From Thermodesulfobacterium commune DSM 2178 (GTDB lineage Bacteria > Desulfobacterota > Thermodesulfobacteria > Thermodesulfobacteriales > Thermodesulfobacteriaceae), in the NCBI RefSeq assembly GCF_000734015.1, contig NZ_CP008796.1, positions 1,590,001 to 1,622,000 of the forward strand: a DNA stretch of 32,000 nt, given 5' to 3'. The translations under genes were made by a program, and so were the position numbers. The notes beneath the pieces were generated by a model. That model was not told where the DNA came from, did not search any database, and worked only from the letters and a program-made list of their open reading frames with translations. The first letter of the stretch is position 1. Each line of letters starts with the position of its first letter. Shown here piece after piece: positions 4,069-31,714 of the stretch.

Positions 4069-4166
4069 GTCCAATCCCCTGGGGGGTAAAAATTATTTGG
4101 GAGGCCATCTCTGCATACCCTTCCCCTCCCTCCCCCAAGGGGTGTTTTTAAGGAGGTTGAAAAAAC

Positions 4167-7108: not shown

Positions 7109-7343
7109 GTTTACAGCCTTAGCTGAAAGGATAAAACAAACTTATGGAGTAAATCTTTGGTTGGTTGAGGTGCTTGGAAAAAGGCATTCTTATGTAGCTG
7201 GCCACAAAGAAGATAGCTTTTTGCCTCCAGAACCTATATACCTTAACGAGAGATTTGCGGTTGTTTCTAACGAGTGGGAGAAAATCCCAGAGGAAGAAAG
7301 AAAACAACTGATAAGTTTTTTAAAAGAGGATCTTTTAAAATGA
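7083..7343 (+). CDS. Small hypothetical protein (86 aa) between hydG and hydF
   Basis: ATG at 7083 lies 6 nt after GAGGA; the track's TTG at 7077 is less likely. The 5' end overlaps the hydG 3' end, and the TGA stop overlaps the hydF ATG (ATGA). I recognise no motif. The call rests on operon position and coupling signals. Confidence 0.55.
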   Translation: MERETFISKFTALAERIKQTYGVNLWLVEVLGKRHSYVAGHKEDSFLPPEPIYLNERFAVVSNEWEKIPEEERKQLISFLKEDLLK

Positions 7344-10061: not shown

Positions 10062-10073
10062 GGTTTTCACCTC

Positions 10074-11348
10074 CTAACTAGATTTTTTTTCCTTAGCTTC
10101 TTTAGCACGTTTTAGGTACTCCTGAAGTATAGCCCTTTCCTTCTTATTCTTTTCAAGATATCCTGGTGTTGTCTGCCAGAAGAGAAGGGCAGCAAGGATC
10201 AACAGGATAATACCAAAGATGAACTTATACTCATCTACAGTTACAAACTGGTTTAATAGAGGACCTATAAAACCACCGATTAGCATAAAAATACCTACTC
10301 CTATACCAAGTTTCCAGTTGATAAATCCTATTTTTGAATAGTTGTAGATTCCTGCGGCTTGACTAAAGAGAACTGTTGGCATAACTGAACCAGCAACCAC
10401 ACCGTGAGGCAATCCATAGATGAGAATCAATAAGGGATTTAAGATAAAACCACCACCTGCTCCCATGATCACCCCAAAGGTACAAATAACAAAGGATAAA
10501 ATGAGGGGTCCAAAAATGTTGGTAGAAGTTCCAGCTACAGGAAAATATACAGTAGGAAAGGAAATTTGATGGGTTAGTTGAATTGGATCGCTTTTTACTT
10601 CCTTGTTGGCTACAGCTAATACAGTAAAATCTCCTTTAGGGGCATTACCAGGAAGAGTTATCTCTGCTTCAAAGGTACCATCGGGATTATTCTTGATTTT
10701 AGTAAGCACAAAGATTTTTTCAAAATCCTTTAACCTGGTTTGAATTAATCTGGCAGCCTCTTTGGTTATTTCTTTTTTATCAGTAAGAGGATCTAATTTA
10801 ATACCTCTTGAACCTATAATGGCTCTTAGAACTGTAGATTTCCACACATCGATTTGTTTAATTTCTTTAGGAGGAGTGATAAAGGCAACATTAGCGTTGC
10901 TTTCTCTTAAAAATTCTCCTATTTTCCATTTCTTATTTTGTTTGTACTTTTGATAGATTTCCTTTACCGGTTTTTCTTCTACCGTACCGTTTTTGTCTAT
11001 CTTAGCTATATAGTCCTCATTAATCCAAATTTGATAGAAAGCAGGTATTTCTTTACTTAAATAAAATTTAAAATCTTTCCTATCAAGTCTACTTACCTGG
11101 ACTTTTTCTTTTGAAGTGATTTCGATGAAGTTTACTTTGTAGCCCTCAGGGACTTTACCTGTAAGTTTAATCTTTTCACCACCTTTGAAAGAGGTTTTGT
11201 CAGCCTTTAACTCAATCTTTAAAGGTATTGCTTCAGCCTCAGGTTTGGTAGTATTCCCCTGTGGCTGAGCTAAAAGGTTTTTAGAAAAAACTAATAAAAA
11301 GAAAAACAAAAGAAAAGACCATAAGTTTAACTTAAACTTGTACCGCAT
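10074..11348 (-). CDS. Signal peptide + ~290-aa extracytoplasmic domain fused to the first 4-TM half of a TauE/SafE (DUF81) permease
   Basis: Start taken at ATG 11348 (MRYKFKLNLWSFLLFFFLLVFSKNLLA), with GGAGGGAGG upstream. The C-terminal third has four TM segments with GAGGGFILNPLL. The stop is a TAG at 10074-10076. Confidence 0.7.
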   Translation of the reverse strand: MRYKFKLNLWSFLLFFFLLVFSKNLLAQPQGNTTKPEAEAIPLKIELKADKTSFKGGEKIKLTGKVPEGYKVNFIEITSKEKVQVSRLDRKDFKFYLSKEIPAFYQIWINEDYIAKIDKNGTVEEKPVKEIYQKYKQNKKWKIGEFLRESNANVAFITPPKEIKQIDVWKSTVLRAIIGSRGIKLDPLTDKKEITKEAARLIQTRLKDFEKIFVLTKIKNNPDGTFEAEITLPGNAPKGDFTVLAVANKEVKSDPIQLTHQISFPTVYFPVAGTSTNIFGPLILSFVICTFGVIMGAGGGFILNPLLILIYGLPHGVVAGSVMPTVLFSQAAGIYNYSKIGFINWKLGIGVGIFMLIGGFIGPLLNQFVTVDEYKFIFGIILLILAALLFWQTTPGYLEKNKKERAILQEYLKRAKEAKEKKSS

Positions 11349-11534
11349 AACCTGCCTCCCTCCTTTGGATTTTTGAGGTTTCTCGATCAAATATCATGCC
11401 TAAACAAAAAATGGTTAAAATTAGAAAAATAAAGAATTTTAAAAGATAAAAAATATATAGGTTTTGATACTTTGGACCTTTAAGCGCAGGGGGTTGTCCC
11501 GTTAAGGACAGATCGTTACAAAAGGTTTTGTTAG

Positions 11535-12974
11535 TTAGGTAAAAAACCTCAGGTTGTATTTTCTGAAAAGGAATTCTTGGAAGGTTTTGATCGTTTTGAA
11601 AACCTGTTTTAGTTGATCTCTGTCTTTTTTAGAAAGTTCTTGCGGGTTTAAATAGTTGTCAGGGGGTTGTCCGGTTTGGAGTTTTTTGGCTTGATTCAAA
11701 AATTGAAGAGAAAGGATAAACCTGTATCCTTCTTTTAATTCAGAGGCAAAGTCTAAAGAGAGAATCCCTTCCTCTTTTAGAGCATCGATTCTATCAAAGG
11801 TATTTGTATGCCAGAGGTTGTACTCTAAAGCCAGAGCTCTAATCCCCTGGACTATGGGAAAAATGGCTGTTTTTTTAAGGTCTAATTTACCTTTGTTAGG
11901 GCCTTCTTTTTCGGTTATAAACCTTCCCAAGAAATTAAGAGGTGATTCAAACCTTATGGCTTCTGCCGCAAGACACACGATAAGTCCTTTATTTTTACTT
12001 ATTTTTTCTTTTATCCAACCTCTGATCTCCTTTTCTATCTCTTCATCTCCATAAACCATTCGAAAATCTAAAAAAATACAAAGATTAAGCAGAGCCTCTT
12101 TTTGAGAACAGTCCATCCAGTTAGAAAGCCGCTTTTTCCAGGTTTGCAGATCTCCTCGCCAAAGGGGATTAGAAATCATAACCCCACCAGGACAAGGAGG
12201 AAATCCTACTTTTAAAAGATTTTCGATAAAAGTAGAAGAAAAGCTTTCAAAAAAAAGGTCTACCTCTTTTTTTCTATCTGGCAAATCTTCATAGATTAAG
12301 GCGTTATCTTGGTCGGTTTTAAAACTTTGTTCTTTTCTTCCTTCACTTCCAAGTACAAAGAATCCAAACTTAGCCGAAAAATAAAGCTCTGTCTCCTTTA
12401 AGGTTATCTCCCAGGTTTTTTTTATAAACCTGTCGTTTATTTCTGCAAGGTATTTCCCTAAGTACTCCGGGTTAAAACCTTCGGAAATTTGATTTAACAA
12501 TGCTTCTTTTACCAGGCTATAAAGTTTGGCTAACTCCTCTAACTCGTGGGCCAACTCCACTTGATATAGAAGAGAAACCAGGTTTTTGCTTTGAAAACTT
12601 ATGATGTCAGTGTCTTCAAGTACTCCTTGAAGGATTCCTTTATCAAAAACCGCTACTTTTCTTAGTCTTTTTTCTGCCATAAGGAGGATGGCTTCAAACA
12701 AACGGTGGTCTGTAGAAAGGCTGACAAGAGGAAAGGTGGCTATTTCTTTAGCTTTTATTCCAAAAGGGTCTTTCCGTTGATATACCACTTTTTGTAAAAT
12801 GTCCCTTTCAGTGATAATCCCTAAGCCTTCTTTTCCTTGCACCACAACAAAACTGTACTCTTTTTCTACCATAAGTTTAATTACTTTATCTAAGGAATCT
12901 TCTTCCCCCACAATAAGAGGAGTTTTTAAGGGTAGATTTTTTAAAGGTTGATCAAAAAATGAATTCTGGAGCAT
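11535..12974 (-). CDS. CBS-pair + DUF294-type nucleotidyltransferase + DUF294_C protein (catalytic motif intact)
   Basis: 479-aa ORF. It has a CBS-like N-terminus (GIITERDIL...VAVFDKGILQGVLEDTDI) and the nucleotidyltransferase motif LGSEGRKEQSFKTDQDNALI. The C-terminal helical domain is similar to that of ORF 13641-15455. Confidence 0.75.
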   Translation of the reverse strand: MLQNSFFDQPLKNLPLKTPLIVGEEDSLDKVIKLMVEKEYSFVVVQGKEGLGIITERDILQKVVYQRKDPFGIKAKEIATFPLVSLSTDHRLFEAILLMAEKRLRKVAVFDKGILQGVLEDTDIISFQSKNLVSLLYQVELAHELEELAKLYSLVKEALLNQISEGFNPEYLGKYLAEINDRFIKKTWEITLKETELYFSAKFGFFVLGSEGRKEQSFKTDQDNALIYEDLPDRKKEVDLFFESFSSTFIENLLKVGFPPCPGGVMISNPLWRGDLQTWKKRLSNWMDCSQKEALLNLCIFLDFRMVYGDEEIEKEIRGWIKEKISKNKGLIVCLAAEAIRFESPLNFLGRFITEKEGPNKGKLDLKKTAIFPIVQGIRALALEYNLWHTNTFDRIDALKEEGILSLDFASELKEGYRFILSLQFLNQAKKLQTGQPPDNYLNPQELSKKDRDQLKQVFKTIKTFQEFLFRKYNLRFFT

Positions 12975-12975
12975 T

Positions 12976-13623
12976 TTAAATAATTTTTAGCGGTAGTTGT
13001 TTCAGTTTTTTATTCCTGTAAGAATAAACTAATTTTAAAAAAAGCAAAGCAGTCATGTAGGCATCTTCTAAAGCATTGTGAAAACTGGTGGTAGGTAAAT
13101 CATATTCTTCTAACAGTTCATTAAGCTTAGGAATTCTATCTAAGGTCTTTTTAGGATAAAGGTCTAAGACATCAAACCCATAAAAAGAGAGGTTAAGGTT
13201 TAGTTCTTCTTTGAGATGTTTTTTTAGCATTTCTAAGTCAAACTCTAAAAAATATCCTACCAATACTGCACCCTTGGTAAACTCTAAAAATTGATGCAAG
13301 GCCTCCTTTCTTTCAAGACCGTTTTTAAGTTTGTCTGGTGTAATCCCGTGAATCTTGATAGAGTCTTCAATTCTACACAGGTCTGTTTTTAAGTATAAAA
13401 TTAGTTTTTCAGAAAAAGAAAGGGTAAGATCAACAATCTTATAAGCACCTACAGAGATAACCTCGTCTTTTTTTAAATCAAGCCCTGTGGTTTCGGTGTC
13501 TATCACCACGAAAGTGGTATCTTTTACTTTTTTATTTAGGTCGACCTCCCAACTTAAGTTTTTCTTTTTTCGAAAAAAAGTATAGTAAGTCCTCTTTAAA
13601 GTTGTGGTTAACACCTTCCACAC
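12976..13623 (-). CDS. DEDDh 3'-5' exonuclease (DnaQ / DNA polymerase III epsilon-like)
   Basis: 215-aa ORF with Exo I VIDTETTGL, Exo II GYFLEFDLEML and Exo III FHNALEDAYMTA. The gap to the downstream gene is 1 nt. Confidence 0.8.
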   Translation of the reverse strand: MWKVLTTTLKRTYYTFFRKKKNLSWEVDLNKKVKDTTFVVIDTETTGLDLKKDEVISVGAYKIVDLTLSFSEKLILYLKTDLCRIEDSIKIHGITPDKLKNGLERKEALHQFLEFTKGAVLVGYFLEFDLEMLKKHLKEELNLNLSFYGFDVLDLYPKKTLDRIPKLNELLEEYDLPTTSFHNALEDAYMTALLFLKLVYSYRNKKLKQLPLKII

Positions 13624-13640
13624 CTTCTTAAGATCCTCGT

Positions 13641-15455
13641 TTAACTTAAATAGCTTAGACGGTATTTTTCAAAAAGCATTTTTTGTAAATTTTCTATGAA
13701 TTTAAAGACTTCTTTTAAAAGGTTTAGGTCTCCTTTTTCTAACTCAGATGGGTCTAAATAATCGTGAGGTTCTTGTTCTCGTTTAAAATTATCTATCTGA
13801 ATTTTAAAACGTAAGGTGGTAAGAAATTTATAAGCCTCTTTCAGGTCTTTAGCTGTTTCAGGTTTAATACTTCCTGAGGATTCTAAACAAGAAATCCGTT
13901 TAAACGTATTCATGGTTTTAATCCCCTGTTCTAAACTAAGTACCCTTACCATACAAACCAAAGGTAAAACCCCTGATTTAAACAGGTTTAATTTACCTTT
14001 AAAAGGACCAGATTTTTCTACCAGGAGTTCTTTAAACAAACCTAAAGGTGGTTTGAGTTTAACTGCATCCAAGGCTAAATATGGTAAAATACGGTCGTTT
14101 TTTTTAATCTTTTGTAAAATATTTTGGTAAAAAAAGTCTGCCTTTTCAGGTTGGATACCTATGAAACGAAGGTCAAAGAAATTAGCTTTTTTACCTATAT
14201 CTTTTAGGTCAGGATAGGCTATCCAATGAGAAAAAGTTTTTTCCCATTCGTTTAAGGTTTTTACCCAGTAAGGTTGGGTAAGATATTCCTCTTCTATTTC
14301 AACCCCTAAAAACTTCAGATTTTTGGCCAATAACAAAGCAACCTCAAAAGCTTCTTCTGAGTTGTTTTTAATTAGAAAAATTTTTAGTTTTGTTTTAAAA
14401 CTGGCTTCTCTTCTTCCATGGGCTCCGATAACCATTAGGCTTGGTAGAAGAGAAAGGTTTCTTTCAGATAGGGTTAAAAGAACTGCCTTTTTGATGATCC
14501 CATCCCTTATTTCAGAAAGATATCTTCCTATCAACTCTGGGTCTTTTTCTTTTATGGCAAAATCTATGGCAGAATAAAAACAGTGGTAATAAATTTTTTT
14601 TAGTTCTTCTAAAGAGTTGGTTCTTTCTATTTCTTTAGTTATGGTAATAAGGTTTTTGCTGCCAAGGGAGATGATGTCGGTATCCTCTAAAATACCTACA
14701 GGTATTCCTTCATCAACCACCACTATTTTCCTTATACGGTGTTGTGTCATAAGAAGCATAGCTTGAGATAAGGGGGCTTCTTTTTCTAAATACACCAAAG
14801 GGAAAGAAGCTATATTTTTGGCTTTAGTTTCTTTTTTATCCAACCCCTGATATAGAAGTTTTTTGATAACGTCCCGCTCAGTTATAATCCCATATCCTTT
14901 TTCTAATTTAACTAAACAAGCGGTGACGTTTTTTTCTACCATCTCCTGAATAACCTTTTCTACGGAGTTTTCTCCATCTACGATGACAGGGGGTTTTAGG
15001 TTCAATTTTGAGAGAGGGACAGAGCTAAAAGTTCCCCACTGGTCTTTTTTCTGGTTTAAAGCTTCTGCCAGTTTTTGAGCCAGTTTTTGGGTATAAAAAC
15101 TCTGGACTACTGAATAGTTTTGAAAAAGTTTTAAAAAATCTTCTTTTTTAATTAAAAATACCACGGTATCTTCTACCGCACGGGCTGAATGGTCAAGTTC
15201 CTGATCAGTTATTAAGGGTAAATAACCAAAGGTTTCTCCTTCTTGAAGTTGGTCTAAGATAGTACCTTTTTTTTCTAAGACTACATATCCTTTCCTTATA
15301 AGATATAAATATTCAGAGAGGTCTTTTTCCCGGTAGATAACCTCGTTTTTAGGATAGACTTTTACCTTTATTTTTTCTACTAAAGTAGATATAACAGATG
15401 AGGGGAGCCCCCTAAAAGGGGGTACTTCCCTTATAAACCTTTCTGCATCAAGCAT
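13641..15455 (-). CDS. Cyclic-nucleotide-binding domain + CBS pair + DUF294-type nucleotidyltransferase-like domain (degenerate catalytic motif) + DUF294_C
   Basis: 604-aa ORF. The N-terminal cNMP-binding-like region reads FRGLP...YREKD...YLIRKGYV...GETFGY. It is followed by a CBS pair (GIITERDVI...IVVVDEGIPVGILEDTDI) and a nucleotidyltransferase-like segment, IGAHGRREASFKTKLKIFLI. Confidence 0.75.
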   Translation of the reverse strand: MLDAERFIREVPPFRGLPSSVISTLVEKIKVKVYPKNEVIYREKDLSEYLYLIRKGYVVLEKKGTILDQLQEGETFGYLPLITDQELDHSARAVEDTVVFLIKKEDFLKLFQNYSVVQSFYTQKLAQKLAEALNQKKDQWGTFSSVPLSKLNLKPPVIVDGENSVEKVIQEMVEKNVTACLVKLEKGYGIITERDVIKKLLYQGLDKKETKAKNIASFPLVYLEKEAPLSQAMLLMTQHRIRKIVVVDEGIPVGILEDTDIISLGSKNLITITKEIERTNSLEELKKIYYHCFYSAIDFAIKEKDPELIGRYLSEIRDGIIKKAVLLTLSERNLSLLPSLMVIGAHGRREASFKTKLKIFLIKNNSEEAFEVALLLAKNLKFLGVEIEEEYLTQPYWVKTLNEWEKTFSHWIAYPDLKDIGKKANFFDLRFIGIQPEKADFFYQNILQKIKKNDRILPYLALDAVKLKPPLGLFKELLVEKSGPFKGKLNLFKSGVLPLVCMVRVLSLEQGIKTMNTFKRISCLESSGSIKPETAKDLKEAYKFLTTLRFKIQIDNFKREQEPHDYLDPSELEKGDLNLLKEVFKFIENLQKMLFEKYRLSYLS

Positions 15456-15456
15456 G

Positions 15457-17001
15457 CTATTCTATCCCCACACCCAGATAGGTTCTAACCTTTTCCTCTT
15501 CAAACTTTTCTTGAGCTTCTTTTTCTGGTGTCAAAAGAGATACTAAGATAGCCATGATAAAACTTGCTGGCATAGAAATAAGAGCAGGATTTTTCCAAGG
15601 GAAGATGGGAGCAGGGTTTTTAAAAATGTCTACCCAAACAGTGGGACTCAAGATGATAAGCACCACAGAAAGGGTAACCCCTGTCAAGATGCCTGCTACT
15701 ACACCTGCAGTAGAAAATTTTTTCCAGAAGATAGAAAGAAGCAGAGAAGGAAAGTTAGCACTGGCAGCTATAGCAAAGGCAAGTCCTACCATAAAAGCTA
15801 CGTTTTGTCCCTTAAAAGCTATACCAAGAAAAATCGCAAGGATTCCTAAGATAAGGGTGGCTAACCTTGCCACTTTTACCTGTTCCTCTTCTGTGGCTCT
15901 TCCTTTTTTTATTACGTTGGTGTATAAGTCATGAGAAAGGGCTCCTGCTCCTGCTAAAGTAAGTCCTGCAACCACCGCAAGAATGGTAGCAAAGGCTACC
16001 GCAGCAATAAATCCTAAAAATATCGTTCCTCCCACAGCCTCCGCCAAAAGAGGAGCTGCCATATTTCCGCCTTTTTCTATACTTTTAATCAAGTTTTCTC
16101 CTACTATAGCAGCCGAACCAAATCCTATGATAAAAGTGAGAATGTAAAAGTAACCGATAAATCCTGTAGCATAAAAAACCGACTTTCTGGCTTCTTTAGC
16201 GTCAGGAACGGTATAAAATCTCATAAGTATGTGAGGGAGACCTGCTGTTCCAAACATAAGGGCTATACCAAGAGAAATAGCATCCCATGGATTGGCTACA
16301 AGACCTCCTGGAAGAAGCCTTTTTTCTCCATACTTTTCACTGATAAAACCAAACAATTCATTAAAGCTAAAACCAAACTTAACCAACGTGAAAATGGCAA
16401 GCACCGTAGCTCCACCAAGCAAAAGACAAGCCTTGATAATCTGAACCCAGGTAGTAGCAATCATGCCACCGAAAAGAACATAAATAATCATTATAGTCCC
16501 TACTAAAACCACCGCCAAATCATAGGGTAATCCAAACAAAAGTTTTATAAGAGAACCAGCTCCTACCATCTGAGCAATAAGGTAAAGAAGAACGGTAGCC
16601 AAAGACCCAAAAGAAGAGGCAATCCTTATAGGCTTTTGCTTAAGCCTGTAAGCTACCACATCTGCAAAGGTATACTTACCAAGGTTTCTTAATTGCTCAG
16701 CTATAAGAAACATCACTATCGGCCAGCCTACCAAAAATCCGATGGAATAAATCAAACCATCATAACCTTTTAACGCTACCAACCCAGCAATCCCAAGGAA
16801 AGAGGCTGCACTCATGTAATCTCCAGCCAACGCAAGTCCATTTTGAAATCCAGTGATACTTCTTCCTGCTGCATAGTACTCAGAAGCTGTCTTAGTCCGT
16901 TTAGCAGCCAAGTAGGTAATATAAAGAGTAGTTAAAGTAAATAAAAAGAAAAACAAAATAGAAACCACGTTAGGTTGCCCTAAGGTTGTCTGCATTTCCA
17001 T
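15457..17001 (-). CDS. actP: Sodium:solute symporter family protein, cation/acetate symporter ActP-like
   Basis: 514-aa polytopic ORF of about 13 TM segments with SSF-type composition. It is immediately preceded by a DUF485/YjcH-like gene, as at characterised actP loci. Confidence 0.8.
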
Positions 17002-17018
17002 CTTACATCCCCCTTATT

Positions 17019-17312
17019 TTAATGTTTTTCTATTTCTCTTTTAATCTCTTCAACCAACCTGTCATAGACGCTGTTTGCCCAAAGGGTATAAACTCCAGTT
17101 AACAGCCAGGAAAAAATTATTACTGAAATCCCCAGAGGAATTCCTAAAGGTATTGATCCGGTAACCTTAATGGCTAAAAAATCTTTTTTAAAAGCTAAAA
17201 GGTAGATAAAACCATAATAAATTAACAACTGGATAAAAGTAAGAGCAAAAGCTACCTTGTTTTTTTGAGACATTAACGTTTGAAACTTAGGAGAACTTAA
17301 CACCTCCTTCAT
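17019..17312 (-). CDS. DUF485 (YjcH-like) small inner-membrane protein
   Basis: Two TM segments. Start taken at ATG 17312 (MKEVLSSPKFQTLMSQKNK), 9 nt after GGAGG; the track start at 17363 lacks an SD. It lies directly upstream of the actP-like gene. Confidence 0.7.
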   Translation of the reverse strand: MKEVLSSPKFQTLMSQKNKVAFALTFIQLLIYYGFIYLLAFKKDFLAIKVTGSIPLGIPLGISVIIFSWLLTGVYTLWANSVYDRLVEEIKREIEKH

Positions 17313-17449
17313 ATTTAAACACCTCCTTTTTTGAGATTTATTTTCTGATAAAATAGATAGCAATAGTTATGCCAAAACAAAGAATATAGAATTATCAATG
17401 ATTAGATGGGAAAACACCAAAAATAGTAAAAACTTTGAGGAAAATTTCC

Positions 17450-20932: not shown

Positions 20933-22309
20933 ATGTGTGGACTTTTTGGGATATTTGGTGTAGAAGAAGCAGCTAACTATACATATTTTGGGCTTTATTC
21001 ACTTCAACACAGAGGTCAAGAAAGTGCTGGGATTGCAGTTTATGATGGAGAAACCATAAGAGAGTGGAAGGCCTTAGGGCTGGTAAGTGAGGTTTTTAAT
21101 GAGGAGATTTTGAAAGGTCTTAAAGGAAAGGTAGCTATCGGTCATGTGAGATATTCTACCACAGGGTCAAGTATAGTACAAAATGCTCAGCCTTTTTGTG
21201 TGAGTTTTGCTAAAAAAAAGATAGCCATAGCTCACAACGGAAATCTAGTCAACGCCTATCAGATCAGGTGCTCCCTCGAGGAAGAAGGACATATCTTTCA
21301 AACCACGATGGATAGTGAGGTTATTATTCATTTAGTCGTGAGAAACCTTAAAAAAGGTCTGGTAGAGGCTATTGCTGAGACTATGAAAAAAATAAAGGGA
21401 GCCTATTCTGTCCTTCTTCTTTACGATGACACCTTGGTTGCCTTTAGAGATCCTTGGGGTTTTCGTCCCCTTTGTTTAGGGATAATTAACGGAGGTTATG
21501 TGATAGCCTCTGAGACCTGCGCGTTTGACCTTATCGGGGCTCAGTATTTAAGAGAGGTAGCCCCAGGGGAGATTTTGGTTATAACTCAAGAAGGGCTAAA
21601 ATCTTATTTTCCCTTTAAAAAAGAAAAGTTTCCCAAGAGTCACTGTGTTTTTGAGTTTATCTATTTTGCCAGGCCTGATAGCCATATCTTTGGCAAAACC
21701 GTATATCCTGTAAGAAAACAGTTAGGAAAAAATCTTTATAAAGAATGTCCTTTAGAGGCAGATTTTGTGATGCCCTTTCCTGATTCAGGTACTTATGCAG
21801 CCATCGGATATTCACAGGCAAGTGGTATCCCTCTTGAGTTTGGAATGATAAGGAATCATTACATAGGAAGGACTTTTATCCAGCCTTCACAACGTCTTAG
21901 GGATCTTTCTGTAAAGATGAAATTAAACCCGGTAAAGGAACTTATCAAAAATAGAGAAATTATTATAGTAGATGATTCCTTGGTAAGAGGAACAACCAGT
22001 AAAAACCGATTTAGAGGGATAAAGGAGCTTGGGCCAAAAAAGGTTCATTTTTTGCTTTCTTGTCCCCCGATAAGGTTCCCTTGCTTTTTTGGAATAGATT
22101 TCCCTTCAAGGTCAGAGCTTATTGCAGCTAAACATAGTGTGGAAGAAATAAGAAAGTTTTTAGACATAGATACCCTTTATTATCTCAGTATAGAAGGGTT
22201 GGTTGATGCGTTAGGTGATCTAAGAAACAAATTATGTTTAGCCTGTTTTACCGGGGAATATCCGATAGAGGTTGATTTTAGTTTTAAAAAAGACATCGCA
22301 GAGGCATAA
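20933..22309 (+). CDS. purF: Amidophosphoribosyltransferase
   Basis: The N-terminus MCGLFGIFG carries the Ntn catalytic Cys. The PRPP-binding motif IIIVDDSLVRGTT is present. Length is 458 aa. Confidence 0.92.
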   Translation: MCGLFGIFGVEEAANYTYFGLYSLQHRGQESAGIAVYDGETIREWKALGLVSEVFNEEILKGLKGKVAIGHVRYSTTGSSIVQNAQPFCVSFAKKKIAIAHNGNLVNAYQIRCSLEEEGHIFQTTMDSEVIIHLVVRNLKKGLVEAIAETMKKIKGAYSVLLLYDDTLVAFRDPWGFRPLCLGIINGGYVIASETCAFDLIGAQYLREVAPGEILVITQEGLKSYFPFKKEKFPKSHCVFEFIYFARPDSHIFGKTVYPVRKQLGKNLYKECPLEADFVMPFPDSGTYAAIGYSQASGIPLEFGMIRNHYIGRTFIQPSQRLRDLSVKMKLNPVKELIKNREIIIVDDSLVRGTTSKNRFRGIKELGPKKVHFLLSCPPIRFPCFFGIDFPSRSELIAAKHSVEEIRKFLDIDTLYYLSIEGLVDALGDLRNKLCLACFTGEYPIEVDFSFKKDIAEA

Positions 22310-22310
22310 A

Positions 22311-23777
22311 ATGTCAAGTTTTAAAAGTTTACAAGAGTTTTTACAGGTGCTGGAACAGGAAAAGGAGTTAATAAGGGTTAAAGAAGAGGTTTCTCCTGAA
22401 CTTGAGATAACCGAGATTACCGACAGAGTTTGTAAAAAATTTGGCCCAGCCCTTTTGTTCGAAAAAGTAAAGGGCTATAAAATTCCTGTGGTTACCAACC
22501 TTATGGGAAGTTACAAAAGGATATGTTTAGCCCTGAGGGTAAAGGATCTTGATGAGCTTGGAAAAGAGGTTGCCGAGTTTATAGAGGTAACAAAACCTGG
22601 GTCTTTTTTTGAGAAATTAAAGCTTGTCCCGAAGCTTTTACGTGCCTCCAATCTTTTTCCTAAAAAGGTTGAAAAAGCCCCCTGTCAGGAGATAGTTTGG
22701 GAGGGAGATGAGGTAGATCTCTACAAACTTCCCATACTTAAATGCTGGCCTAAGGACGGAGGTCCTTTTATAACACTTCCTTGTGTGATCACCAAGGATC
22801 CTGAAACCGGGACTTATAACGTAGGTATGTACCGGATGCAGGTGTTTAGTAAGAATGAAACCGGTATGCACTGGCAAATACATAAGACCGGGGCTAAGCA
22901 CTATAGAAAAGCAGAAAAAAAAGGAGAAAGGTTGCCGGTAGCTGTAGCTATAGGCCCTGACCCTGCAATTATCTATGCAGCCACAGCTCCTTTACCTGAA
23001 GACATAGACGAGTTTTTGTTAGCAGGATTTTTAAGAAGGTCTCCGGTTGAACTGGTAAAATGTTTGACTGTGCCCCTTGAGGTGCCTGCAGAAAGTCAGA
23101 TCGTCCTTGAAGGATATGTAGAGCCCTTCGAAAGAAGGCTTGAAGGCCCTTTTGGAGATCATACTGGCTATTACACCCCTCCAGACTATTACCCTGTGTT
23201 TAGAGTTACCTGTATCACCTTAAGAAAGGATGCTATCTATCCGGCTACCATCGTAGGTAAACCTCCTCAAGAGGATTGTTTTCTTGGTAAGGCTACAGAA
23301 AGGTTGTTTTTGCCTCTGCTAAAAAAGATCCTTCCCGAAATAATAGATATTCATCTTCCTTGGGAGGGAGTTTTTCATAACTTAGCCTTTGTATCAATAG
23401 ATAAAAGATATCCAGGTCATGCCTTTAAAGTAGCCTCAGCCTTATGGGGCCTTGGGCAGATGATGTTTACCAAAATAATCGTGGTGGTTGACAAAGAGGT
23501 AAACGTTCAGAATATAAGTGAGGTGCTGTTTTACATGTCAGGCAACGTAGACCCAGAAAGGGATATCATGATAGTTAAAGGACCGGTTGATGCCCTTGAC
23601 CATGCAAGCCCTTATCCAGCCTATGGGTCTAAGATGTGTATCGATGCTACCAGAAAATGGAGAGAAGAGGGATATTTAAGGGAATGGCCAGAAGAGGCGG
23701 TTATGTCTGATGAAATCAAAGCTAAGGTTGAAAAGGTTTGGAAAAAAATCGAGGAACAGATGAGGAGGTTAAAATAA
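22311..23777 (+). CDS. UbiD-family (prenylated-FMN dependent) decarboxylase, menaquinone/ubiquinone-biosynthesis type
   Basis: Start moved to ATG 22311, 1 nt after the purF stop (MSSFKSLQEFLQVLEQEKELIRVKEEV). UbiD-like blocks include GPALLFEKVKGY, YNVGMYRMQV and GPFGDHTGYY. Confidence 0.8.
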   Translation: MSSFKSLQEFLQVLEQEKELIRVKEEVSPELEITEITDRVCKKFGPALLFEKVKGYKIPVVTNLMGSYKRICLALRVKDLDELGKEVAEFIEVTKPGSFFEKLKLVPKLLRASNLFPKKVEKAPCQEIVWEGDEVDLYKLPILKCWPKDGGPFITLPCVITKDPETGTYNVGMYRMQVFSKNETGMHWQIHKTGAKHYRKAEKKGERLPVAVAIGPDPAIIYAATAPLPEDIDEFLLAGFLRRSPVELVKCLTVPLEVPAESQIVLEGYVEPFERRLEGPFGDHTGYYTPPDYYPVFRVTCITLRKDAIYPATIVGKPPQEDCFLGKATERLFLPLLKKILPEIIDIHLPWEGVFHNLAFVSIDKRYPGHAFKVASALWGLGQMMFTKIIVVVDKEVNVQNISEVLFYMSGNVDPERDIMIVKGPVDALDHASPYPAYGSKMCIDATRKWREEGYLREWPEEAVMSDEIKAKVEKVWKKIEEQMRRLK

Positions 23778-25982: not shown

Positions 25983-27782
25983 ATGAGCCAAAAAATTGTT
26001 AAGGCTATAGGGCTTGTTTTTGGAGACATAGGAACAAGTCCTATCTATACCTTACCTGTTATTTTCCTTTTTCTGCCACCCACGAAAGAAAATGTTTTAG
26101 GCGTATTATCCTTGATCTTTTGGACTTTGATTATCATCCCTACCATTCAATACACCGTCTTAGCTATGAGTCTTAGTTTGCGAGGAGAAGGAGGCACTTT
26201 AATTCTTTCTGAGATTTTGCGTACTTTATTAAGAGGTCGTAAGAGATTTTTAGGCTCGGTGGTTTTTTTGTCTTTTATAGGTATTTCCTTTCTTATGGGA
26301 GATGGGGTTATCACCCCTGCCATAAGTATAATGAGTGCTGTAGAAGGAATTTCTTATATCCCTGGGTTAAGACCTTTAGAAAAAACAGAGGTAGTTTTAC
26401 TCAGTGTGTTAATTGCTTTAGGTTTGTTTTATTTTCAGAAAAGAGGGACAGAAAAGGTTTCAGGGGCCTTTGGCCCTATCATGAGCCTTTGGTTTTTAAG
26501 TCTTTTTATCCTTGGTTTTTTAAACTTGTTTTTGAGTCCTGAGGTTATCTTAGCGATAAACCCTTGGTATGCCTTAGAGTTTTTCAAACAAAACGGTTGG
26601 AAGGCCTACTTAATCTTAGGAGAGGTTATCCTTTGTGCTACGGGCAGTGAAGCTATGTATGCTGACATGGGGCATCTTGGGGCAAAACCCATAAAAAGAG
26701 CTTGGTATTTAGTTCTAACAGCCCTGGTGGTGAACTATTTTGGCCAAGGGGCTTTTCTTTTAAGACATCCGGAGTCGAAAAGCATTCTTTTTGAGATGTG
26801 TTTAAATACCTTTGCTTCAGCTTATGTGCCTTTTTTGTGTTTAGCGTTGATGGCAACGGTGATCGCCTCTCAAGCTATGATCAGCTGTATGTTTAGTGTG
26901 GTTTATCAGGCGATGTCTGCCAGATATTTGCCTTTAATGAGAGTAAAGTATACTTCTCCTGAGCTACATTCTCAGATTTACATAGGAACGATCAATTGGT
27001 TTCTTTTCTTAGCCGTGGTTTTTATCATGTTTGAGTTTCAAACCTCTACCAATTTGGCAGCAGCTTACGGTCTTGCAGTTACAGGAAATATGACCATTAC
27101 AGGGATTTTTCTCATCACGATTTTTTATCTTAAAAAACGATATTCTTTTTTATTTCTTGCAGTCTTAACCACCTCTATCACCTTTTTATACTTTACTTCA
27201 ACCCTTTTTAAGCTTCCTCACGGAGGATTTTGGGCTCTGGTACTTGCTGTAATTCCTTTTTCCATAATACTTCTTTATACCCAAGGACAAAAAAGACTAT
27301 ATAAAAGCCTGAGGTTTTTCAATCAGAAAGAATTTGTGACTAATTTTGCTAAATTTTATAAAGAAAATCCTAAAATCCAAGGCAAGGCACTTTACTTTAT
27401 CCGTGACCCTGAACATTTTCCCCCCTACGTTATCGAAAACATCTTTGTTCATGGGATTCTCTATGAAGAAAACATCTTTGTTTCCCTAATAAGAAAAAAC
27501 GAGCCTTATGGTATTACCACCAGTTTTTTAGAAGAAATCTGCCCTGGAGCTAAGGTTTTTGAGATTGCTTACGGTTATATGGAAAGGCTCAAGGTTGAAG
27601 ACATTTTAAAAGAACAGGGTATCAACGAACGGGTAATCTTTTATGGTCTTGAGGATATCGAGACTCAACATCCTGTCTGGAAGGCTTATGCCTTTATCAA
27701 ACAAATCAGCCCCCATTTTGTTAAATTTCTTAATCTTCCTCCTGCTAAACTTCACGGAGTGTTAACCAGAATAGAGCTGTAA
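25983..27782 (+). CDS. kup: KUP/HAK/KT-family potassium transporter
   Basis: 599-aa ORF with the N-terminal GLVFGDIGTSPIYT signature, about 12 TM segments and a cytoplasmic C-terminal domain. Confidence 0.88.
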   Translation: MSQKIVKAIGLVFGDIGTSPIYTLPVIFLFLPPTKENVLGVLSLIFWTLIIIPTIQYTVLAMSLSLRGEGGTLILSEILRTLLRGRKRFLGSVVFLSFIGISFLMGDGVITPAISIMSAVEGISYIPGLRPLEKTEVVLLSVLIALGLFYFQKRGTEKVSGAFGPIMSLWFLSLFILGFLNLFLSPEVILAINPWYALEFFKQNGWKAYLILGEVILCATGSEAMYADMGHLGAKPIKRAWYLVLTALVVNYFGQGAFLLRHPESKSILFEMCLNTFASAYVPFLCLALMATVIASQAMISCMFSVVYQAMSARYLPLMRVKYTSPELHSQIYIGTINWFLFLAVVFIMFEFQTSTNLAAAYGLAVTGNMTITGIFLITIFYLKKRYSFLFLAVLTTSITFLYFTSTLFKLPHGGFWALVLAVIPFSIILLYTQGQKRLYKSLRFFNQKEFVTNFAKFYKENPKIQGKALYFIRDPEHFPPYVIENIFVHGILYEENIFVSLIRKNEPYGITTSFLEEICPGAKVFEIAYGYMERLKVEDILKEQGINERVIFYGLEDIETQHPVWKAYAFIKQISPHFVKFLNLPPAKLHGVLTRIEL

Positions 27783-27786
27783 GCTT

Positions 27787-30459
27787 TTATTCTAAGTCCG
27801 TCTGGGAAGTTAAAAGTTTACTGTTTCTAAAGGTTCTTATCAGGTTTGGATGGTGAGAAGGTACGTTCATCTTTTTTAAATGGCAAACCTCACATTTTAA
27901 GTTTGCACCTATCGGGAGGATATTTCTCTGGTATTGTAAGGGTTGTAGGTTGTCTATAACCATCCCATAAGGGTTAAAAGCTGGATATAATGCGTGGGGA
28001 GAGCCATGACAGACAAGACAAGGTAGTTTTTGTGTGTTATCCTTTCTTACCCGGAAAAGGCCTGAGACATCTTCAGTCCAGTTATTATAACCCTTAGCCT
28101 CTTTAGCTGGTTTTTGAAAGCCTTTATGGCAGTTAAGACAGTCAGGTTGCTGTACCCAGGGCTTCCTTGGTGTTATCTGATCTTTAGGTATTGGGGGGTT
28201 GAGATGAGCAAGCAAAAATTTGGAAGTTTTTGTGTTCGTTCCCTTGAGAAGAGATGTGGCATGAAAATCTATGTTTCCATGACAATCAACACACTCTAAC
28301 CCTAATTTTTTATGAATATCTCTGTAACATTTGGTATTACCTTTAGGATGATCAGGATGACATAAATAACAGGCTTTTTCATCTTTATAGGGCATATAGT
28401 TTGCATGCCATCCATGGATGGCTGCTGAAAAACTATTATAACCCTTTATTCCTTCACTCCCTACGATAAAATCGGCATGACATTTTTGACAGAAAACAGG
28501 TTTCCCTTGAAGAGCAGATTTATAGAAGTTGGTTTGATGGTTTTTATCATGGGCTTTAAGTATGTTAATGGCTGTTTGATCAGAGATACCGGCTACACCA
28601 TTCCATCTTGGGCTTCCTTCATGACACACATAGCAACGGAACTCAGTTGCTACAGGAGAAACGGCTTTGGTGCGCTGTAAAACTTTGCCTGAAACTTTAT
28701 CTACAGCTTCTATCTCAAAAACAGGATAAGGGTTATATGTACCGTCTTTTTTATAAGGTAAAACCGGGATCCCCTTAGCTATAAAAATTTTTCTTTTTTC
28801 ATCCCAATCGAAAGTACCGTTAAGTCCTTTTCCAGTTAAACCTAAATCCTTAGGAACGGTTTGGTTAAAAAATTCTGTAGCATAATCCCAGAAAAGGACA
28901 TGTTTAGAGGGTGTTTTAAAACCAGGTTCAACTTTGTAAACTAATTGAACTTTTGTGTTATCAAGCATTTCAGGTTTAGGCCCTCTCTTAATAACCAAAG
29001 CTTCAAAAGTGCTTCCAGGATATAAGAAACTAAACCATCTGTCTGCATCGGTAACACATTTCATACCCAGAGGACTAAAAACAAAGATGACATACTGGTC
29101 TTTTTGTGGGTCAAAGGTAAAAGGTTGAGTTTTAAGTTCTCTGATAACAGGTTTAAGTTCAGGGGGATTTTCAGGTTTTCTTAAAAGTTCTTTAACAAGA
29201 AATGTAGCAAGAGCTTCTCTCTCTTTTTCTGTACCTATAAATTTAGGCATATAACCAAGAACTTTTCCTTGTCCATATAACTGGGAAACCATTCCAAAGT
29301 AGGTAAACCCCCGGGCTTTTTCAACCACATCGTTTCTTAGCCCTTTTATGGTGTGGCAGGATAGACATTGTAGGTTGAAAATTTCTCTCCCCGCCCAAAT
29401 TTTATTATCTTCTGTAACTTCTTTAACCATAGCCCATCTTGCATGTTTTAAAAAACCTTCGCTGTTAAGTTTCTTTTCCTCCTCAACCCTTATCCCAAAA
29501 GAATAAAGATAACCATATATTACATAAGGTCTTCGTGCATACTCCCTTATATGTTCAAAACTACCTAACCATAGCAACCCTATAAAAAGAAGGAGAAAGG
29601 CTAATACCCTTTGTAAACCAGGATTGACTTTTACTAAAAAAGCAAGAGAAATTAAATAAATAAACGCAGAGGAAACATAAAGAAGTTTTTTAGCCATCAG
29701 AACCTGTCTGTTAAACACAAAGTTAAACACTTTAGATAGTTCTGGGACGGTTAGAAAGTACCAAATACTTGAAAAGAATATAAAGGGAAAGGCTACATAA
29801 AGCCATTTTACGTTATATTTTAAAAGAAAAGATCTTTTATCCTTGGGAGAGAAAAATAGAGTACTAAAAATTCCAAAGATACCTGCTAACATAATAGAGA
29901 TACCTGTTCTGAAAAATAGGCTTGGAAAGCTTGAAGGATTAAAAAAACCGTGCCAAGGATTTCTGGTTTCTAACCATTTTCCAGGAGTTAACATAAAACA
30001 AATAATACCGTTTATGACAAATAAGCTCATCCAGGCAGAGATGGCGTATAGCAGCGCTACCCTAAGACGCAGTTTGTCAGACAATTCATCGAACTTGTAG
30101 TGGTATATCAAAAGAGCTACTATTTCCACAAAGAAAAACACCCATTCTATAGCCCAGAAGAAAACAAACTGATTTATAAGGATTGAGGTAGCCTCAGGGC
30201 TTGCAATCCCTATGATAAACCAAATACCTACTCCAGAAACCCCGCCCAAAACCATCGTGATCAAAAGGAAAAACCAGGTATGTTTACGCACAAATTCTCG
30301 TAAGTCTTGATCGTTGGTCAACACAGAAAGTCTGTCTGTATACCAGAGAAAGATTCCTCCTCCTACGGCAAAATGAGAAATAAAAACATGAAAAACCGCA
30401 ATAATTGCTACCCAAAGCCCAGGATTTATAAAATAAGTTTCCCAAACAGGATAGTTCAT
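27787..30459 (-). CDS. Fusion protein: cytochrome bd subunit-I-like membrane domain + monohaem cytochrome c domain + non-haem domain + heptahaem c module
   Basis: 890-aa ORF. Residues 1-325 are polytopic, with AVFHVFISHFAVGGG, WAIEWVFFFVEIV and EYARRPYVIYGYLYS, which resemble CydA helix-1 His, the acidic helix and the GRQPW-x-YG motif as I recall them. CLSCH sits at aa 365-369 with a downstream MP. Seven further CxxCH sites follow: CYVCH, CQKCH, CYLCH, CVDCH, CLNCH, CLVCH and CEVCH (aa 609-860). Confidence 0.7.
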   Translation of the reverse strand: MNYPVWETYFINPGLWVAIIAVFHVFISHFAVGGGIFLWYTDRLSVLTNDQDLREFVRKHTWFFLLITMVLGGVSGVGIWFIIGIASPEATSILINQFVFFWAIEWVFFFVEIVALLIYHYKFDELSDKLRLRVALLYAISAWMSLFVINGIICFMLTPGKWLETRNPWHGFFNPSSFPSLFFRTGISIMLAGIFGIFSTLFFSPKDKRSFLLKYNVKWLYVAFPFIFFSSIWYFLTVPELSKVFNFVFNRQVLMAKKLLYVSSAFIYLISLAFLVKVNPGLQRVLAFLLLFIGLLWLGSFEHIREYARRPYVIYGYLYSFGIRVEEEKKLNSEGFLKHARWAMVKEVTEDNKIWAGREIFNLQCLSCHTIKGLRNDVVEKARGFTYFGMVSQLYGQGKVLGYMPKFIGTEKEREALATFLVKELLRKPENPPELKPVIRELKTQPFTFDPQKDQYVIFVFSPLGMKCVTDADRWFSFLYPGSTFEALVIKRGPKPEMLDNTKVQLVYKVEPGFKTPSKHVLFWDYATEFFNQTVPKDLGLTGKGLNGTFDWDEKRKIFIAKGIPVLPYKKDGTYNPYPVFEIEAVDKVSGKVLQRTKAVSPVATEFRCYVCHEGSPRWNGVAGISDQTAINILKAHDKNHQTNFYKSALQGKPVFCQKCHADFIVGSEGIKGYNSFSAAIHGWHANYMPYKDEKACYLCHPDHPKGNTKCYRDIHKKLGLECVDCHGNIDFHATSLLKGTNTKTSKFLLAHLNPPIPKDQITPRKPWVQQPDCLNCHKGFQKPAKEAKGYNNWTEDVSGLFRVRKDNTQKLPCLVCHGSPHALYPAFNPYGMVIDNLQPLQYQRNILPIGANLKCEVCHLKKMNVPSHHPNLIRTFRNSKLLTSQTDLE

Positions 30460-31499
30460 ACTTTTCTTCCTTCCTGCTTAGAGAAACTATGTTTTAAAAA
30501 GTAATACACTGTAACAATTCCTAACCCCAAAAACAGTAAAAACAACAAGAAAACATCCATTTGAGGAGAAAATTGCAACAGTTCTGTTTGATAGTAAGAA
30601 GACAACTGAAGGGTTCTTAAGTTAAACCTGTTTACTACCATAAAAATAAGGGTAAGTATAAAAAACGATGTGGTTAGTTTTAAGTGATGCTTTTTACTAA
30701 AATATAGAGAACCGATAACAAAAACAATGCTTAAGTAAAAAAAGAAAGCAACTTTTGGGGCATTGCCTAAAAATAAGCCTCTTATCTCTGAAGGTAGAGA
30801 TAATAGAAAAGCTATTCCTACTCCTATTTGCAACAGGGTTAAGTAAAAAAATAGGTTTAGCCCTTTTATAAGGCATATTTTATCGTTTTTATAATGTCCC
30901 AAAACCCCTAAGCTCAAACCGCTTACAGCCAAAGACCCTGCCAAAAAATGTAGATATTTAAAATATAGATAAGGTATATCTAAGGGCAGATAGGTGCCTT
31001 TTCTATTAGCAAAATAGACGTGCCATTTTTCTGGGTTTTCCAGAAGGGTAAGGTTGCTTACCAAGATAAAGGCTATATAAAGAAGGATAAAAGCCTGAAT
31101 AAAAATAAAAGGTTTAAAAGGCTTTTGAGAAGAACTTTTCTTAGAGATGAGGTAAGAAAGATAGTAGACAAAGATAACAGAAGGGATGATAAGCATCCAA
31201 TGGGTAGCAAGTATGATAGAACTCGTATAAAAAAGAGGTCCGTATACTACCTGAAGGAAAAGAAGGGCAGGGATGGCCATGTTGATAGCTAAGGCAAACA
31301 GAATCGGTTTTTTCTTAAAAAAAAGACGAGCAGTTTCCGGAAGGAAGGTTTCTTTTAACTGTTGGTATGTAAAAAACAGCGACCATCCTAAAATAAGATT
31401 GATAAGCAAGATATGGACGAGAAAAAAGGTATGCTCCAGAAAATTCAAGATTGAAGGATAAAAGGGAAGTTTTTCAGGATAAAAAACCAAACTTTCCAT
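30456..31499 (-). CDS. Polytopic integral membrane protein (about 9-10 TM), unknown function, partner of the bd-like/multihaem fusion
   Basis: 347-aa hydrophobic ORF. Its TGA overlaps the ATG of the downstream 890-aa gene (GTATGA). Several His residues lie in or near predicted helices. I recognise no diagnostic motif. Confidence 0.6.
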   Translation of the reverse strand: MESLVFYPEKLPFYPSILNFLEHTFFLVHILLINLILGWSLFFTYQQLKETFLPETARLFFKKKPILFALAINMAIPALLFLQVVYGPLFYTSSIILATHWMLIIPSVIFVYYLSYLISKKSSSQKPFKPFIFIQAFILLYIAFILVSNLTLLENPEKWHVYFANRKGTYLPLDIPYLYFKYLHFLAGSLAVSGLSLGVLGHYKNDKICLIKGLNLFFYLTLLQIGVGIAFLLSLPSEIRGLFLGNAPKVAFFFYLSIVFVIGSLYFSKKHHLKLTTSFFILTLIFMVVNRFNLRTLQLSSYYQTELLQFSPQMDVFLLFLLFLGLGIVTVYYFLKHSFSKQEGRKV

Positions 31500-31714
31500 A
31501 TAAAAAATTTTAGAAAAAGTTTAAAAATAAGTCAAGAAAAAATCGCAATTGTAGATAGATTTAAAATTAAAAATTTTTTTTATAACATCTTTTTTAAATC
31601 ATTAAAAAAGGAGACACTACCAAAGCTTGCATAGAATTGAAAAAATTAGAAAACAATCCTGATTTACACCAGCAAATAACTCTTCTTAAAGAATTTTGCC
31701 AAAAATAATCACAC

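Follow-up and report, generated by a model that had tools for sequence, protein, structure and literature searches.

The window analysed here is a 32,000-nucleotide stretch of the Thermodesulfobacterium commune DSM 2178 genome (contig NZ_CP008796.1, positions 1,590,001 to 1,622,000, forward strand), and all coordinates below are counted from its first letter unless another contig is named. Towards its far end, two adjacent genes on the reverse strand encode what we call subunits A and B. Subunit A combines a membrane domain related to CydA, subunit I of cytochrome bd, with eight CxxCH haem c-binding motifs. Its haem-c-free partner, subunit B, is encoded directly upstream and had been overlooked in an earlier reading of this DNA made from the letters and open reading frames (ORFs), hereafter the sequence-only reading. 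It is close to certain that A and B are OR-C1a and OR-C1b, respectively, of the cytochrome bd superfamily. The positions of both genes and of their features are collected in Table 1.

Table 1. Features of the B-A gene pair, with window positions, strand and the basis of each assignment
Feature	Window position	Strand	Basis
Subunit A gene (assigned to OR-C1a), 890 amino acids, ATG start	27787..30459	-	
8-helix CydA-type membrane domain, subunit A residues 1-310	29530..30459	-	Pfam PF01654, AlphaFold, Foldseek, family profile
Further membrane-domain residues of subunit A: E302, listed alongside E306 and R309			
Class-I monohaem cytochrome c domain, subunit A residues 345-428 (C365-x-x-C368-H369, distal M404-P405)	29176..29427	-	profiles
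Haem-free beta-rich (beta-sandwich-like) domain, subunit A residues 450-602	28654..29112	-	AlphaFold
Heptahaem c3-type module, subunit A residues 603-886 (CxxCH at 609, 657, 697, 723, 774, 814, 856)	27802..28653	-	Pfam, profile
Subunit B gene (assigned to OR-C1b), 347 amino acids, haem-c-free, 9 predicted transmembrane helices, CydB/CydA fold	30456..31499	-	ORF, AlphaFold, hhalign
ATGA stop/start overlap of B and A, 4 nucleotides (GTATGAAC)	30456..30459	-	sequence
Promoter-like TTGACT-17-TAAAAT, ending 8 nucleotides before the B ATG (31499)	31507..31535	-	consensus match only

Subunit A consists, in order, of an 8-helix CydA-like domain, a class-I haem c domain with a CxxCH at residue 365, a haem-free beta-sandwich and a C-terminal region with the seven further CxxCH motifs. 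Sixteen of its nineteen cysteines sit in these motifs, and simple arithmetic from the protein's own Cys and His frequencies gives a chance expectation of only ~0.01 for such motifs. Exactly eight CxxCH motifs are found in 115 of 117 full-length homologues. The sequence-only reading had proposed this four-part layout for the 890-residue ORF, and both the 1 + 7 arrangement of CxxCH motifs and the Pfam domain matches bear it out. The strings that it quoted are all present and conserved, namely H24 in helix 1, WAIEWVFFFVEIV with E105 and E112, and RRPYVIYGYL, and the stretch of ~160 amino acids in which it had seen no haem motif is indeed there, at residues ~430-600, and is beta-rich in the AlphaFold model. 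This model, built on 118 sequences, has a pLDDT of 90.7 and a pTM of 0.87.

The relationship of the membrane domain to CydA is supported by both sequence profiles and predicted structure. Residues 17-229 match Pfam Cyt_bd_oxida_I (PF01654) at 36 bits, above the gathering cut-off of 26.2, so the relationship that had been claimed for the N-terminal domain stands. In the AlphaFold model, transmembrane helices span residues 13-47, 51-86, 88-121, 128-157, 177-203, 206-237, 251-273 and 280-308. Searching the PDB with this model in Foldseek, we found that the top 20 matches were all cytochrome bd subunits, CydA first and then CydB, with E values down to 7e-7 and a template-modelling (TM) score on the target of up to 0.69. 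Because each of these matches spans 310-460 alignment columns, the bd fold applies to the whole domain and not just to helices 1-4. A profile of the diverse clade (53 sequences, 28-45% identity) likewise matches Geobacillus CydA (5doq_A, E = 1.9e-13), the qOR2 CydA of M. smegmatis (5e-7) and E. coli bd-II (8e-4). We took residue equivalences from profile searches of this kind, in which diverse family profiles were run on PDB sequences. When hhalign was used to compare the family alignments with E. coli CydA or CydB as single sequences, the probability was not meaningful, and hmmsearch against E. coli CydA alone was not significant, though its register was as expected.

In these alignments H24 takes the place of His19 (E. 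coli numbering; H21 in Geobacillus CydA), and E105 and E112 take the places of Glu99 and Glu107 (E101 and E108 in Geobacillus CydA). The counterpart of the segment E306-Y-A-R309-R-P311-Y is AEVGRQPW in 5doq_A and 9r2g_A and AEYGRQPW in E. coli. At the family level the consensus ‘REavRKPY’ stands opposite ‘AEVGRQPW’ of the two solved CydA proteins, and R-E306-x-x-R309-x-P311-Y corresponds to A-E445-x-G-R448-Q-P-W. Across clade members of 28-45% identity, H24, R184, R305, E306, R309 and P311 are invariant, and E105 and E112 are conserved in at least 90%. At the His186 position, a ligand site of haem b558, the profile alignments place F183, and the Met393-bearing segment of CydA is unmatched in every one of them; Met393 is also marked absent in the published table for OR-C1a (Murali et al. 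2021). The Q-loop between transmembrane helices 6 and 7 is also absent: helices 206-237 and 251-273 are linked by no more than a 10-residue helix (240-249), and profile alignments to CydA skip the Q-loop region. The domain has no ninth helix. As judged from these alignments, subunit A no longer has the Q-loop for quinol oxidation or the ligands of haem b558, and keeps the predicted ligands of the di-haem centre together with the proton-pathway glutamates. Since the domain ends after helix 8 and has a CydA-like topology with the N-terminus outside, the C-terminus is expected in the periplasm. Lys and Arg residues in the predicted loops number 14 on the cytoplasmic and 6 on the periplasmic side, and all CxxCH sites are periplasmic in the predicted topology, as the sequence-only reading had supposed.

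In the class-I haem domain, Pfam Cytochrome_CBB3 scores 20 bits over residues 356-421, below its cut-off when the single sequence is searched, and family profiles match CcoP, QcrC and cytochrome c6 domains with E values of 1.8e-7 to 1e-4. Nearly all members of the clade carry the CxxCH of this domain, near residue 365. In the beta-rich domain that follows, the AlphaFold model places strands at 456-600 with pLDDT >90; the domain has no family match in Pfam or NCBIfam, and Foldseek returned only weak Ig-like/beta-sandwich matches (E >0.3). The length of this domain varies among lineages, with the second CxxCH occurring as early as residue 524 in shorter 8-haem forms.

The C-terminal seven-haem module is of the cytochrome c3 type. 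Residues 714-818 score above the cut-offs of Pfam Cytochrom_c3_2 (33.7 bits, cut-off 25) and Cytochrome_C7 (32.4 bits, cut-off 24.8), in the comparison with multihaem families that had been suggested for the C-terminus. The profile of the module matches the nine-haem cytochromes c 1duw (6e-5) and 1ofw, the cytochrome c3 1wad and the multihaem cytochrome 6qvm. Membership of the NrfH/NapC/CymA family was considered and rejected, as TIGR03153 reaches 31.9 bits against a cut-off of 134.2 and only its profile positions 25-134 of 138 are matched. In a set of 27 divergent eight-haem proteins, exactly seven histidines outside the motifs are 100% conserved (637, 682, 685, 716, 822, 869 and 870), and M404 is conserved in 96%. 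The seven invariant distal histidines and M404 amount to one distal ligand per haem, and we therefore read the set as eight six-coordinate haems. This ligand counting suggests that the eight c-haems form an electron wire with no open catalytic haem. Two additional cysteines, C468 in the beta domain (~29056-29058) and C711 in the haem module (~28327-28329), are invariant among close relatives, and divergent 8-haem proteins tend either to keep both or to replace both. A catalytic haem with His/Cys ligation through either residue was considered and rejected. Because conservation of the two is confined to a subclade and one mostly occurs together with the other, an inter-domain disulfide is the more likely explanation, and the pattern suggests a C468-C711 bond in this subclade.

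Subunit B has no match in Pfam or NCBIfam, and its family profile finds no match among PDB sequences, where sulfotransferase hits at E ~0.7 are noise. Its AlphaFold model (pLDDT 91.5) has nine helices, and the closest structures are again cytochrome bd subunits (9r2g_D, TM 0.68/0.72; 5doq_B, TM 0.66/0.69), with bd subunit II matched over the full length. Comparing the two families directly, hhalign aligned subunit B with the membrane domain of A at 95% probability (E = 1e-8, 303 columns), and by this alignment subunit B is a paralogue of that domain. The pairing sets H29 of B against H24 of A at the His19 position, H184 of B against F183 of A at the His186 position, R291 and R295 of B against R305 and R309 of A, and F292 of B where A has E306. 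Because H184 pairs with F183, the b558-type histidine that is lost in A is kept in B. Among 131 sequences of subunit B, H29, H184 and M287 are conserved in 98% and R291 in 100%, and the helices carry invariant polar residues as well.

The stop codon of B overlaps the start codon of A, with a purine-rich GGAAGGAAG just upstream of the overlap, and translational coupling of the two genes is probable on this arrangement. The overlap recurs across loci, at -4 nucleotides in 30 of 60 cases and at -1 nucleotide in a further 12. Upstream of B, the TTGACT-17-TAAAAT element is the only strong promoter-like match and no Shine-Dalgarno sequence is visible, so that the B-A transcript may be leaderless. 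Since the region holds fewer such promoter matches (5) than its shuffles do (mean 11.2), we treat the element as a suggestion and not as evidence. At the other end of the pair, the subunit A gene and a convergent gene for a Kup-type K+ transporter (25983-27782, + strand) end 4 nucleotides apart (27782-27790), and there is no terminator-like hairpin between them.

OR-C enzymes have been described as members of the bd superfamily that carry haem c and lack the quinol site, with 532 representatives in 24,706 GTDB genomes (Murali, Gennis & Hemp 2021, bioRxiv 10.1101/2021.01.16.426971). In that survey, OR-C1a has about 8 transmembrane helices, a periplasmic C-terminal extension with up to 8 CxxCH motifs and an adjacent paralogue, OR-C1b; the proposed electron donor of OR-C is cytochrome c and the acceptor O2, with no experiments reported (Murali et al. 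2021). Our subunit A matches the OR-C1a reference signature at identical numbering (H24, E105, E112, S145, Y119, Y121, V77, W80, F183; 8 transmembrane helices). It departs at a single position, with R131 in place of H131, and the residue corresponding to H131 (E. coli H126) is not well conserved (Murali et al. 2021). Supplementary Table 7 of the same study lists 8-haem OR-C1a genes of T. thermophilum DSM 1276, T. commune and T. hveragerdense, among them H529DRAFT_00176 on scaffold00002.2 of T. thermophilum DSM 1276, and it assigns to OR-C1b the haem-free genes next to those of T. yellowstonii, T. thiophilus, Desulfomicrobium and Draconibacterium. Over residues 1-890, subunit A is 95% identical to a match on that very scaffold of T. 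thermophilum, and because the match lies on the scaffold of H529DRAFT_00176, we take subunit A to be orthologous to a listed OR-C1a member. The sequence-only reading had pointed to a biochemically uncharacterised OR-C clade with cytochrome c fusions, and in this it was right: the protein is an OR-C1a whose orthologue from this genus is on the list.

The protein type is thus already known, and our assignment is a re-identification of a published family, down to this genus. For the OR-C1 names, our literature search returned only the defining paper; it returned nothing for the locus tags Dde_0291, THEYE_A0176, DGI_4051, Dbac_2631, DMR_35740, Desal_0820 and Daes_0497, and papers on Melioribacter and on oxygen stress in sulfate-reducing bacteria deal with canonical CydAB only. 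What we add is minor, and comprises the retained Glu445/Arg448-type motif, the His19/His186-type histidines in OR-C1b, the full set of distal ligands for eight c-haems, the affinity of the haem module to c3 and nine-haem cytochromes, the nine helices of B, the strictly two-gene make-up of the unit and a link to the fdh2 operon of D. vulgaris.

Relatives of the pair are widespread. Subunit B is 97% identical to a Thermodesulfobacterium sp. protein and subunit A 98% identical to a metagenomic protein, and full-length relatives of ~885 amino acids occur in Thermodesulfovibrio, many Desulfobacterota, Bacteroidota, Ignavibacteriota, Calditrichota and other phyla. At least 596 stretches in species-representative genomes match subunit A, and its membrane domain alone is found in 747 representative clusters, with short forms of 1-3 c-haems commoner than the 8-haem form. 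Directly upstream of A, a B-like ORF was identified by clustering in 60 of 75 loci and on inspection in 5 more, and in half of the remaining 10 the contig leaves no room upstream of A. These B-like ORFs never contain a CxxCH. Across 85 loci no third gene is conserved, and no family other than B occurs in more than 17 of them. The B-A pair is a self-contained two-gene unit.

Two neighbourhoods deserve mention. In a 98%-identical Thermodesulfobacterium-like contig, which extends beyond the end of the window, a formate dehydrogenase-type cluster (contig L002, positions 1-5184) lies 5-9 kb upstream of B-A on the same strand, with genes for a molybdopterin oxidoreductase, a 4Fe-4S protein, an FdhE-like protein and MoeA; two pairs of AMP-binding ligase and ACT-domain genes separate it from B-A. 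In loci of the Thermodesulfovibrio yellowstonii type (L003/L004, 12706-14382), a Lactamase_B/ODP gene of the di-iron, oxygen-binding-protein type lies directly downstream of the OR-C1 pair, accompanied by a gene of 291 amino acids with no Pfam match on record, and these two genes recur together in 4-5 Thermodesulfovibrio loci only. The ODP-type neighbour may hint at a link to oxygen in that genus.

The analysis above shows the identity, fold, residue conservation, topology and two-gene organisation of the pair; that haems are bound, which way electrons flow, that O2 is the substrate and which donors serve the complex are inferred. With moderate confidence, we favour a bd-type oxidase fed from the periplasm, in which a haem wire would deliver electrons to an in-membrane di-haem site that reduces O2 with cytoplasmic protons. 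Electrons from periplasmic donors (a pool of cytochrome c3 that receives electrons from periplasmic formate dehydrogenase and, probably, from hydrogenases too) would enter the seven-haem wire, whose bis-His haems would pass them to the His/Met class-I haem. This haem would replace b558 and feed a di-haem centre ligated by H24 and E306, where O2 would be reduced to water with protons drawn from the cytoplasm via E105 and E112. The outcome would be electrogenic removal of oxygen in a strict anaerobe. We prefer this reading because the parts needed for quinol oxidation are all gone while the haem sites with single ligands, of the high-spin type, and the proton pathway are kept.

The one-haem OR-C1a of D. 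vulgaris Hildenborough, DVU2484 (a bd-like domain plus one class-I haem c), provides a possible parallel. DVU2484 is annotated as CfdD of a ‘membrane-associated FDH (FdhM)’ complex (FDH, formate dehydrogenase) together with DVU2483, a putative cytochrome c (PMC10920352). DVU2485-2481 make up the five genes of the fdh2 operon, an eleven-haem cytochrome c is encoded directly beside fdh2, and the periplasmic FDH2 enzyme is insensitive to O2 (10.1101/2022.01.18.476765). We count this operon, the formate dehydrogenase cluster in the 98%-identical contig and the ODP-type gene in Thermodesulfovibrio in favour of an oxidase, as an indirect link to donors and oxygen.

Several observations weigh against an oxidase. 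The host is a strict anaerobe with [FeFe]-hydrogenases, a lifestyle that fits the window because it carries these hydrogenases together with their maturases. DVU2484 and DVU2483 were detected under anaerobic lactate/sulfate growth (PMC10920352), and because they were detected during anaerobic sulfate respiration, an anaerobic role is possible. Formate dehydrogenase genes lie near the 8-haem form in only 1 of 85 loci, so that the linkage is not conserved. The equivalence of E306 with Glu445 rests on weak local alignment blocks (6-11 bits) together with the identity and position of the motif, and the table of the defining paper marks Glu445 as absent in OR-C1a (Murali et al. 2021). The near-invariant histidines of B at the His19 and His186 positions hint at extra b-haems that would be superfluous to a simple oxidase. 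Finally, our literature search found no experimental study, biochemical or genetic, of any OR-C enzyme.

These histidines, conserved in 98% of B sequences, would find a use if the complex were instead a periplasmic cytochrome c:menaquinone oxidoreductase, an alternative that we regard as unlikely. Its wire would collect electrons from periplasmic formate dehydrogenase or hydrogenase and pass them, by way of b-type haems in both subunits, to a membrane-embedded quinone site, with protons taken from the cytoplasm via E105 and E112, so that the complex would close an electrogenic redox loop for anaerobic sulfate respiration and serve as a membrane anchor for periplasmic dehydrogenases. The mostly anaerobic hosts suit this alternative, as do the ‘membrane-associated FDH (FdhM)’ annotation of one-haem DVU2484 and multihaem DVU2483 and their detection under anaerobic lactate/sulfate growth. 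The helices of B carry invariant polar residues, the B model weakly resembles quinone-binding PsrC (2vpw_C, E = 7e-3), and A weakly resembles ActC/ActF of alternative complex III (ACIII). However, the complex lacks the quinol site known from the superfamily, namely the Q-loop and b558 of subunit I, we identified no quinone-site motif, and the NrfD-type similarities are marginal. The conserved ligands, moreover, are single axial His and Glu residues, which typically mark high-spin haems that bind ligands, not electron-transfer haems with bis-His ligation. In more general terms, OR-C1 would then be a new respiratory module on a bd scaffold and not an oxygen reductase, connecting a periplasmic multihaem/c3 pool electrogenically to menaquinone or another acceptor in the membrane, a proposal that we likewise consider doubtful. 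Its b-haems could lie in both subunits, at H24 and E306 in A and at H29 and H184 in B. If true, it would fill a gap in how energy is conserved during the periplasmic oxidation of formate and H2, both in sulfate reducers and in many anaerobic Bacteroidota, Ignavibacteriota and Calditrichota.

Electron flow in the opposite direction was the model of the sequence-only reading, which had a quinol-oxidising bd-like domain send electrons outward through the c-haems to a periplasmic or extracellular acceptor, and which suggested that the protein could be something other than an oxygen reductase. This functional claim finds no support, since the Q-loop and the b558 ligands are missing (F183, no match for Met393) and the retained residues H24, E105, E112, E306 and R309 are those of the O2-reducing di-haem centre and the cytoplasmic proton pathway. 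A haem chain could conduct either way, and haems 4-7 are weakly NrfH/NapC-like (TIGR03153, 31.9 bits), but that score falls far under the 134-bit cut-off, and the first 24 of the 138 profile positions are unmatched. Homologues have weak recorded Pfam matches to the MtrC domain, yet no acceptor-type gene is conserved nearby, and all eight c-haems appear six-coordinate, which leaves the periplasm without a catalytic haem. Outward flow would also leave the conserved cytoplasmic proton-pathway glutamates without a role, and we consider this model very improbable. A di-haem site that reduces another small oxidant, such as nitric oxide (NO), H2O2 or nitrite, would give the complex a detoxifying role, as a reductase supplied with electrons from the periplasm. 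NO binding is known from canonical bd oxidases, as are side activities like those of peroxidase or catalase, and the catalytic-site ligands are kept here; in Thermodesulfovibrio, an ODP/flavodiiron-like metallo-beta-lactamase gene adjoins the pair. No NO- or peroxide-related genes are conserved nearby, however, and with no specific evidence for it, such a reductase seems to us quite unlikely.

A cytochrome-c-fed bd-type oxidase would provide sulfate reducers with a direct electrogenic route from periplasmic H2 and formate oxidation to the removal of O2, and it would be the first of the bd type to work without quinol. If a quinone were reduced instead, models of energy conservation in these organisms would change. 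OR-C enzymes are widespread, and many of their carriers are nominal strict anaerobes. Our analysis offers concrete residue targets in the Glu445-type motif, the two conserved histidines of the partner subunit and the distal ligands of the eight c-haems.

Elsewhere in the window, an [FeFe]-hydrogenase cluster (832-9618, + strand) comprises two large-subunit genes, one small-subunit gene and HydG-, HydF- and HydE-like maturase genes, with a gene for an aspartase/fumarase-class lyase (4167-5609) between the structural and the maturation genes. A TauE/SafE-family transporter is encoded as two consecutive genes (9657-11390, - strand): an ORF of 438 amino acids covers TauE profile positions 3-113 and ends at a TAG stop, which is followed by AGGAGGTG and an ATG, and a second ORF covers profile positions 125-237. 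The split looks natural, with its own putative ribosome-binding site, and not like a frameshift. Two DUF294/CBS nucleotidyltransferase-like genes, one with a domain that binds cyclic nucleotide monophosphates, flank an RNase_T-type exonuclease gene at 11535-17363 (- strand), and this group adjoins genes for an SSF symporter and a DUF485 protein, an ActP/YjcH-like pair. The ORF of a UbiD-family decarboxylase (22272-23777, + strand) has a listed TTG start that overlaps the preceding amidophosphoribosyltransferase-like gene by 38 nucleotides; because the gene call in a near-identical contig is 488 amino acids long, its true start probably lies further downstream.

In comparison with known systems, the pair is closest to OR-C1 as defined by Murali et al. 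(2021), with which it shares an 8-helix CydA-like subunit without a quinol site, a periplasmic extension with 8 CxxCH motifs, the signature residues and an adjacent paralogous ‘b’ subunit. It differs from OR-C1a in R131 for H131 and in the E306/R309/P311 motif, which is invariant here whereas Glu445 is marked absent in the published table, and from the OR-C1 description in the 9 predicted helices of B instead of 8; the function of the clade is itself a prediction. Canonical CydAB (E. coli bd-I, 6rko/6rx4; Geobacillus, 5doq) is likewise a two-subunit membrane enzyme with the same fold in both subunits, and equivalents of its His19, Glu99, Glu107, Glu445 and Arg448 are found here. Unlike CydAB, the complex lacks the Q-loop, His186 and Met393 (haem b558) and the ninth helix of subunit I, carries eight covalently bound c-haems in a fusion and has its genes in reversed order (II, then I); its subunit II keeps His19- and His186-type histidines, and no CydX-like small ORF was noted beside it. 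In the D. vulgaris fdh2 operon (‘FdhM’, CfdA/B/D/E), an OR-C1a is also functionally associated with a multihaem cytochrome c and a periplasmic dehydrogenase, but there the multihaem cytochrome, described as eleven-haem, is a separate gene and the formate dehydrogenase genes belong to the operon, whereas the OR-C1a of the window has seven haems fused to it and shares its operon with no dehydrogenase. The nine-haem cytochromes c (9HcA/NhcA, 1duw/1ofw) and Desulfovibrio cytochrome c3 resemble the haem module in profile at haems 2-3 and their surroundings (E = 6e-5 to 7e-4), in scores above the Cytochrom_c3_2 and Cytochrome_C7 cut-offs and in a predicted bis-His ligand pattern; they differ in haem number and spacing, and here a beta-sandwich precedes the module, which is tethered to a membrane enzyme. 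The haem-copper oxidases with fused cytochrome c (caa3 subunit II and cbb3 CcoP, whose domains the class-I family profile matches) follow the same principle of an oxidase with its own class-I cytochrome c entry domain, though their catalytic superfamily, built on a haem-copper centre, is unrelated, and they have one to two haems in place of eight.

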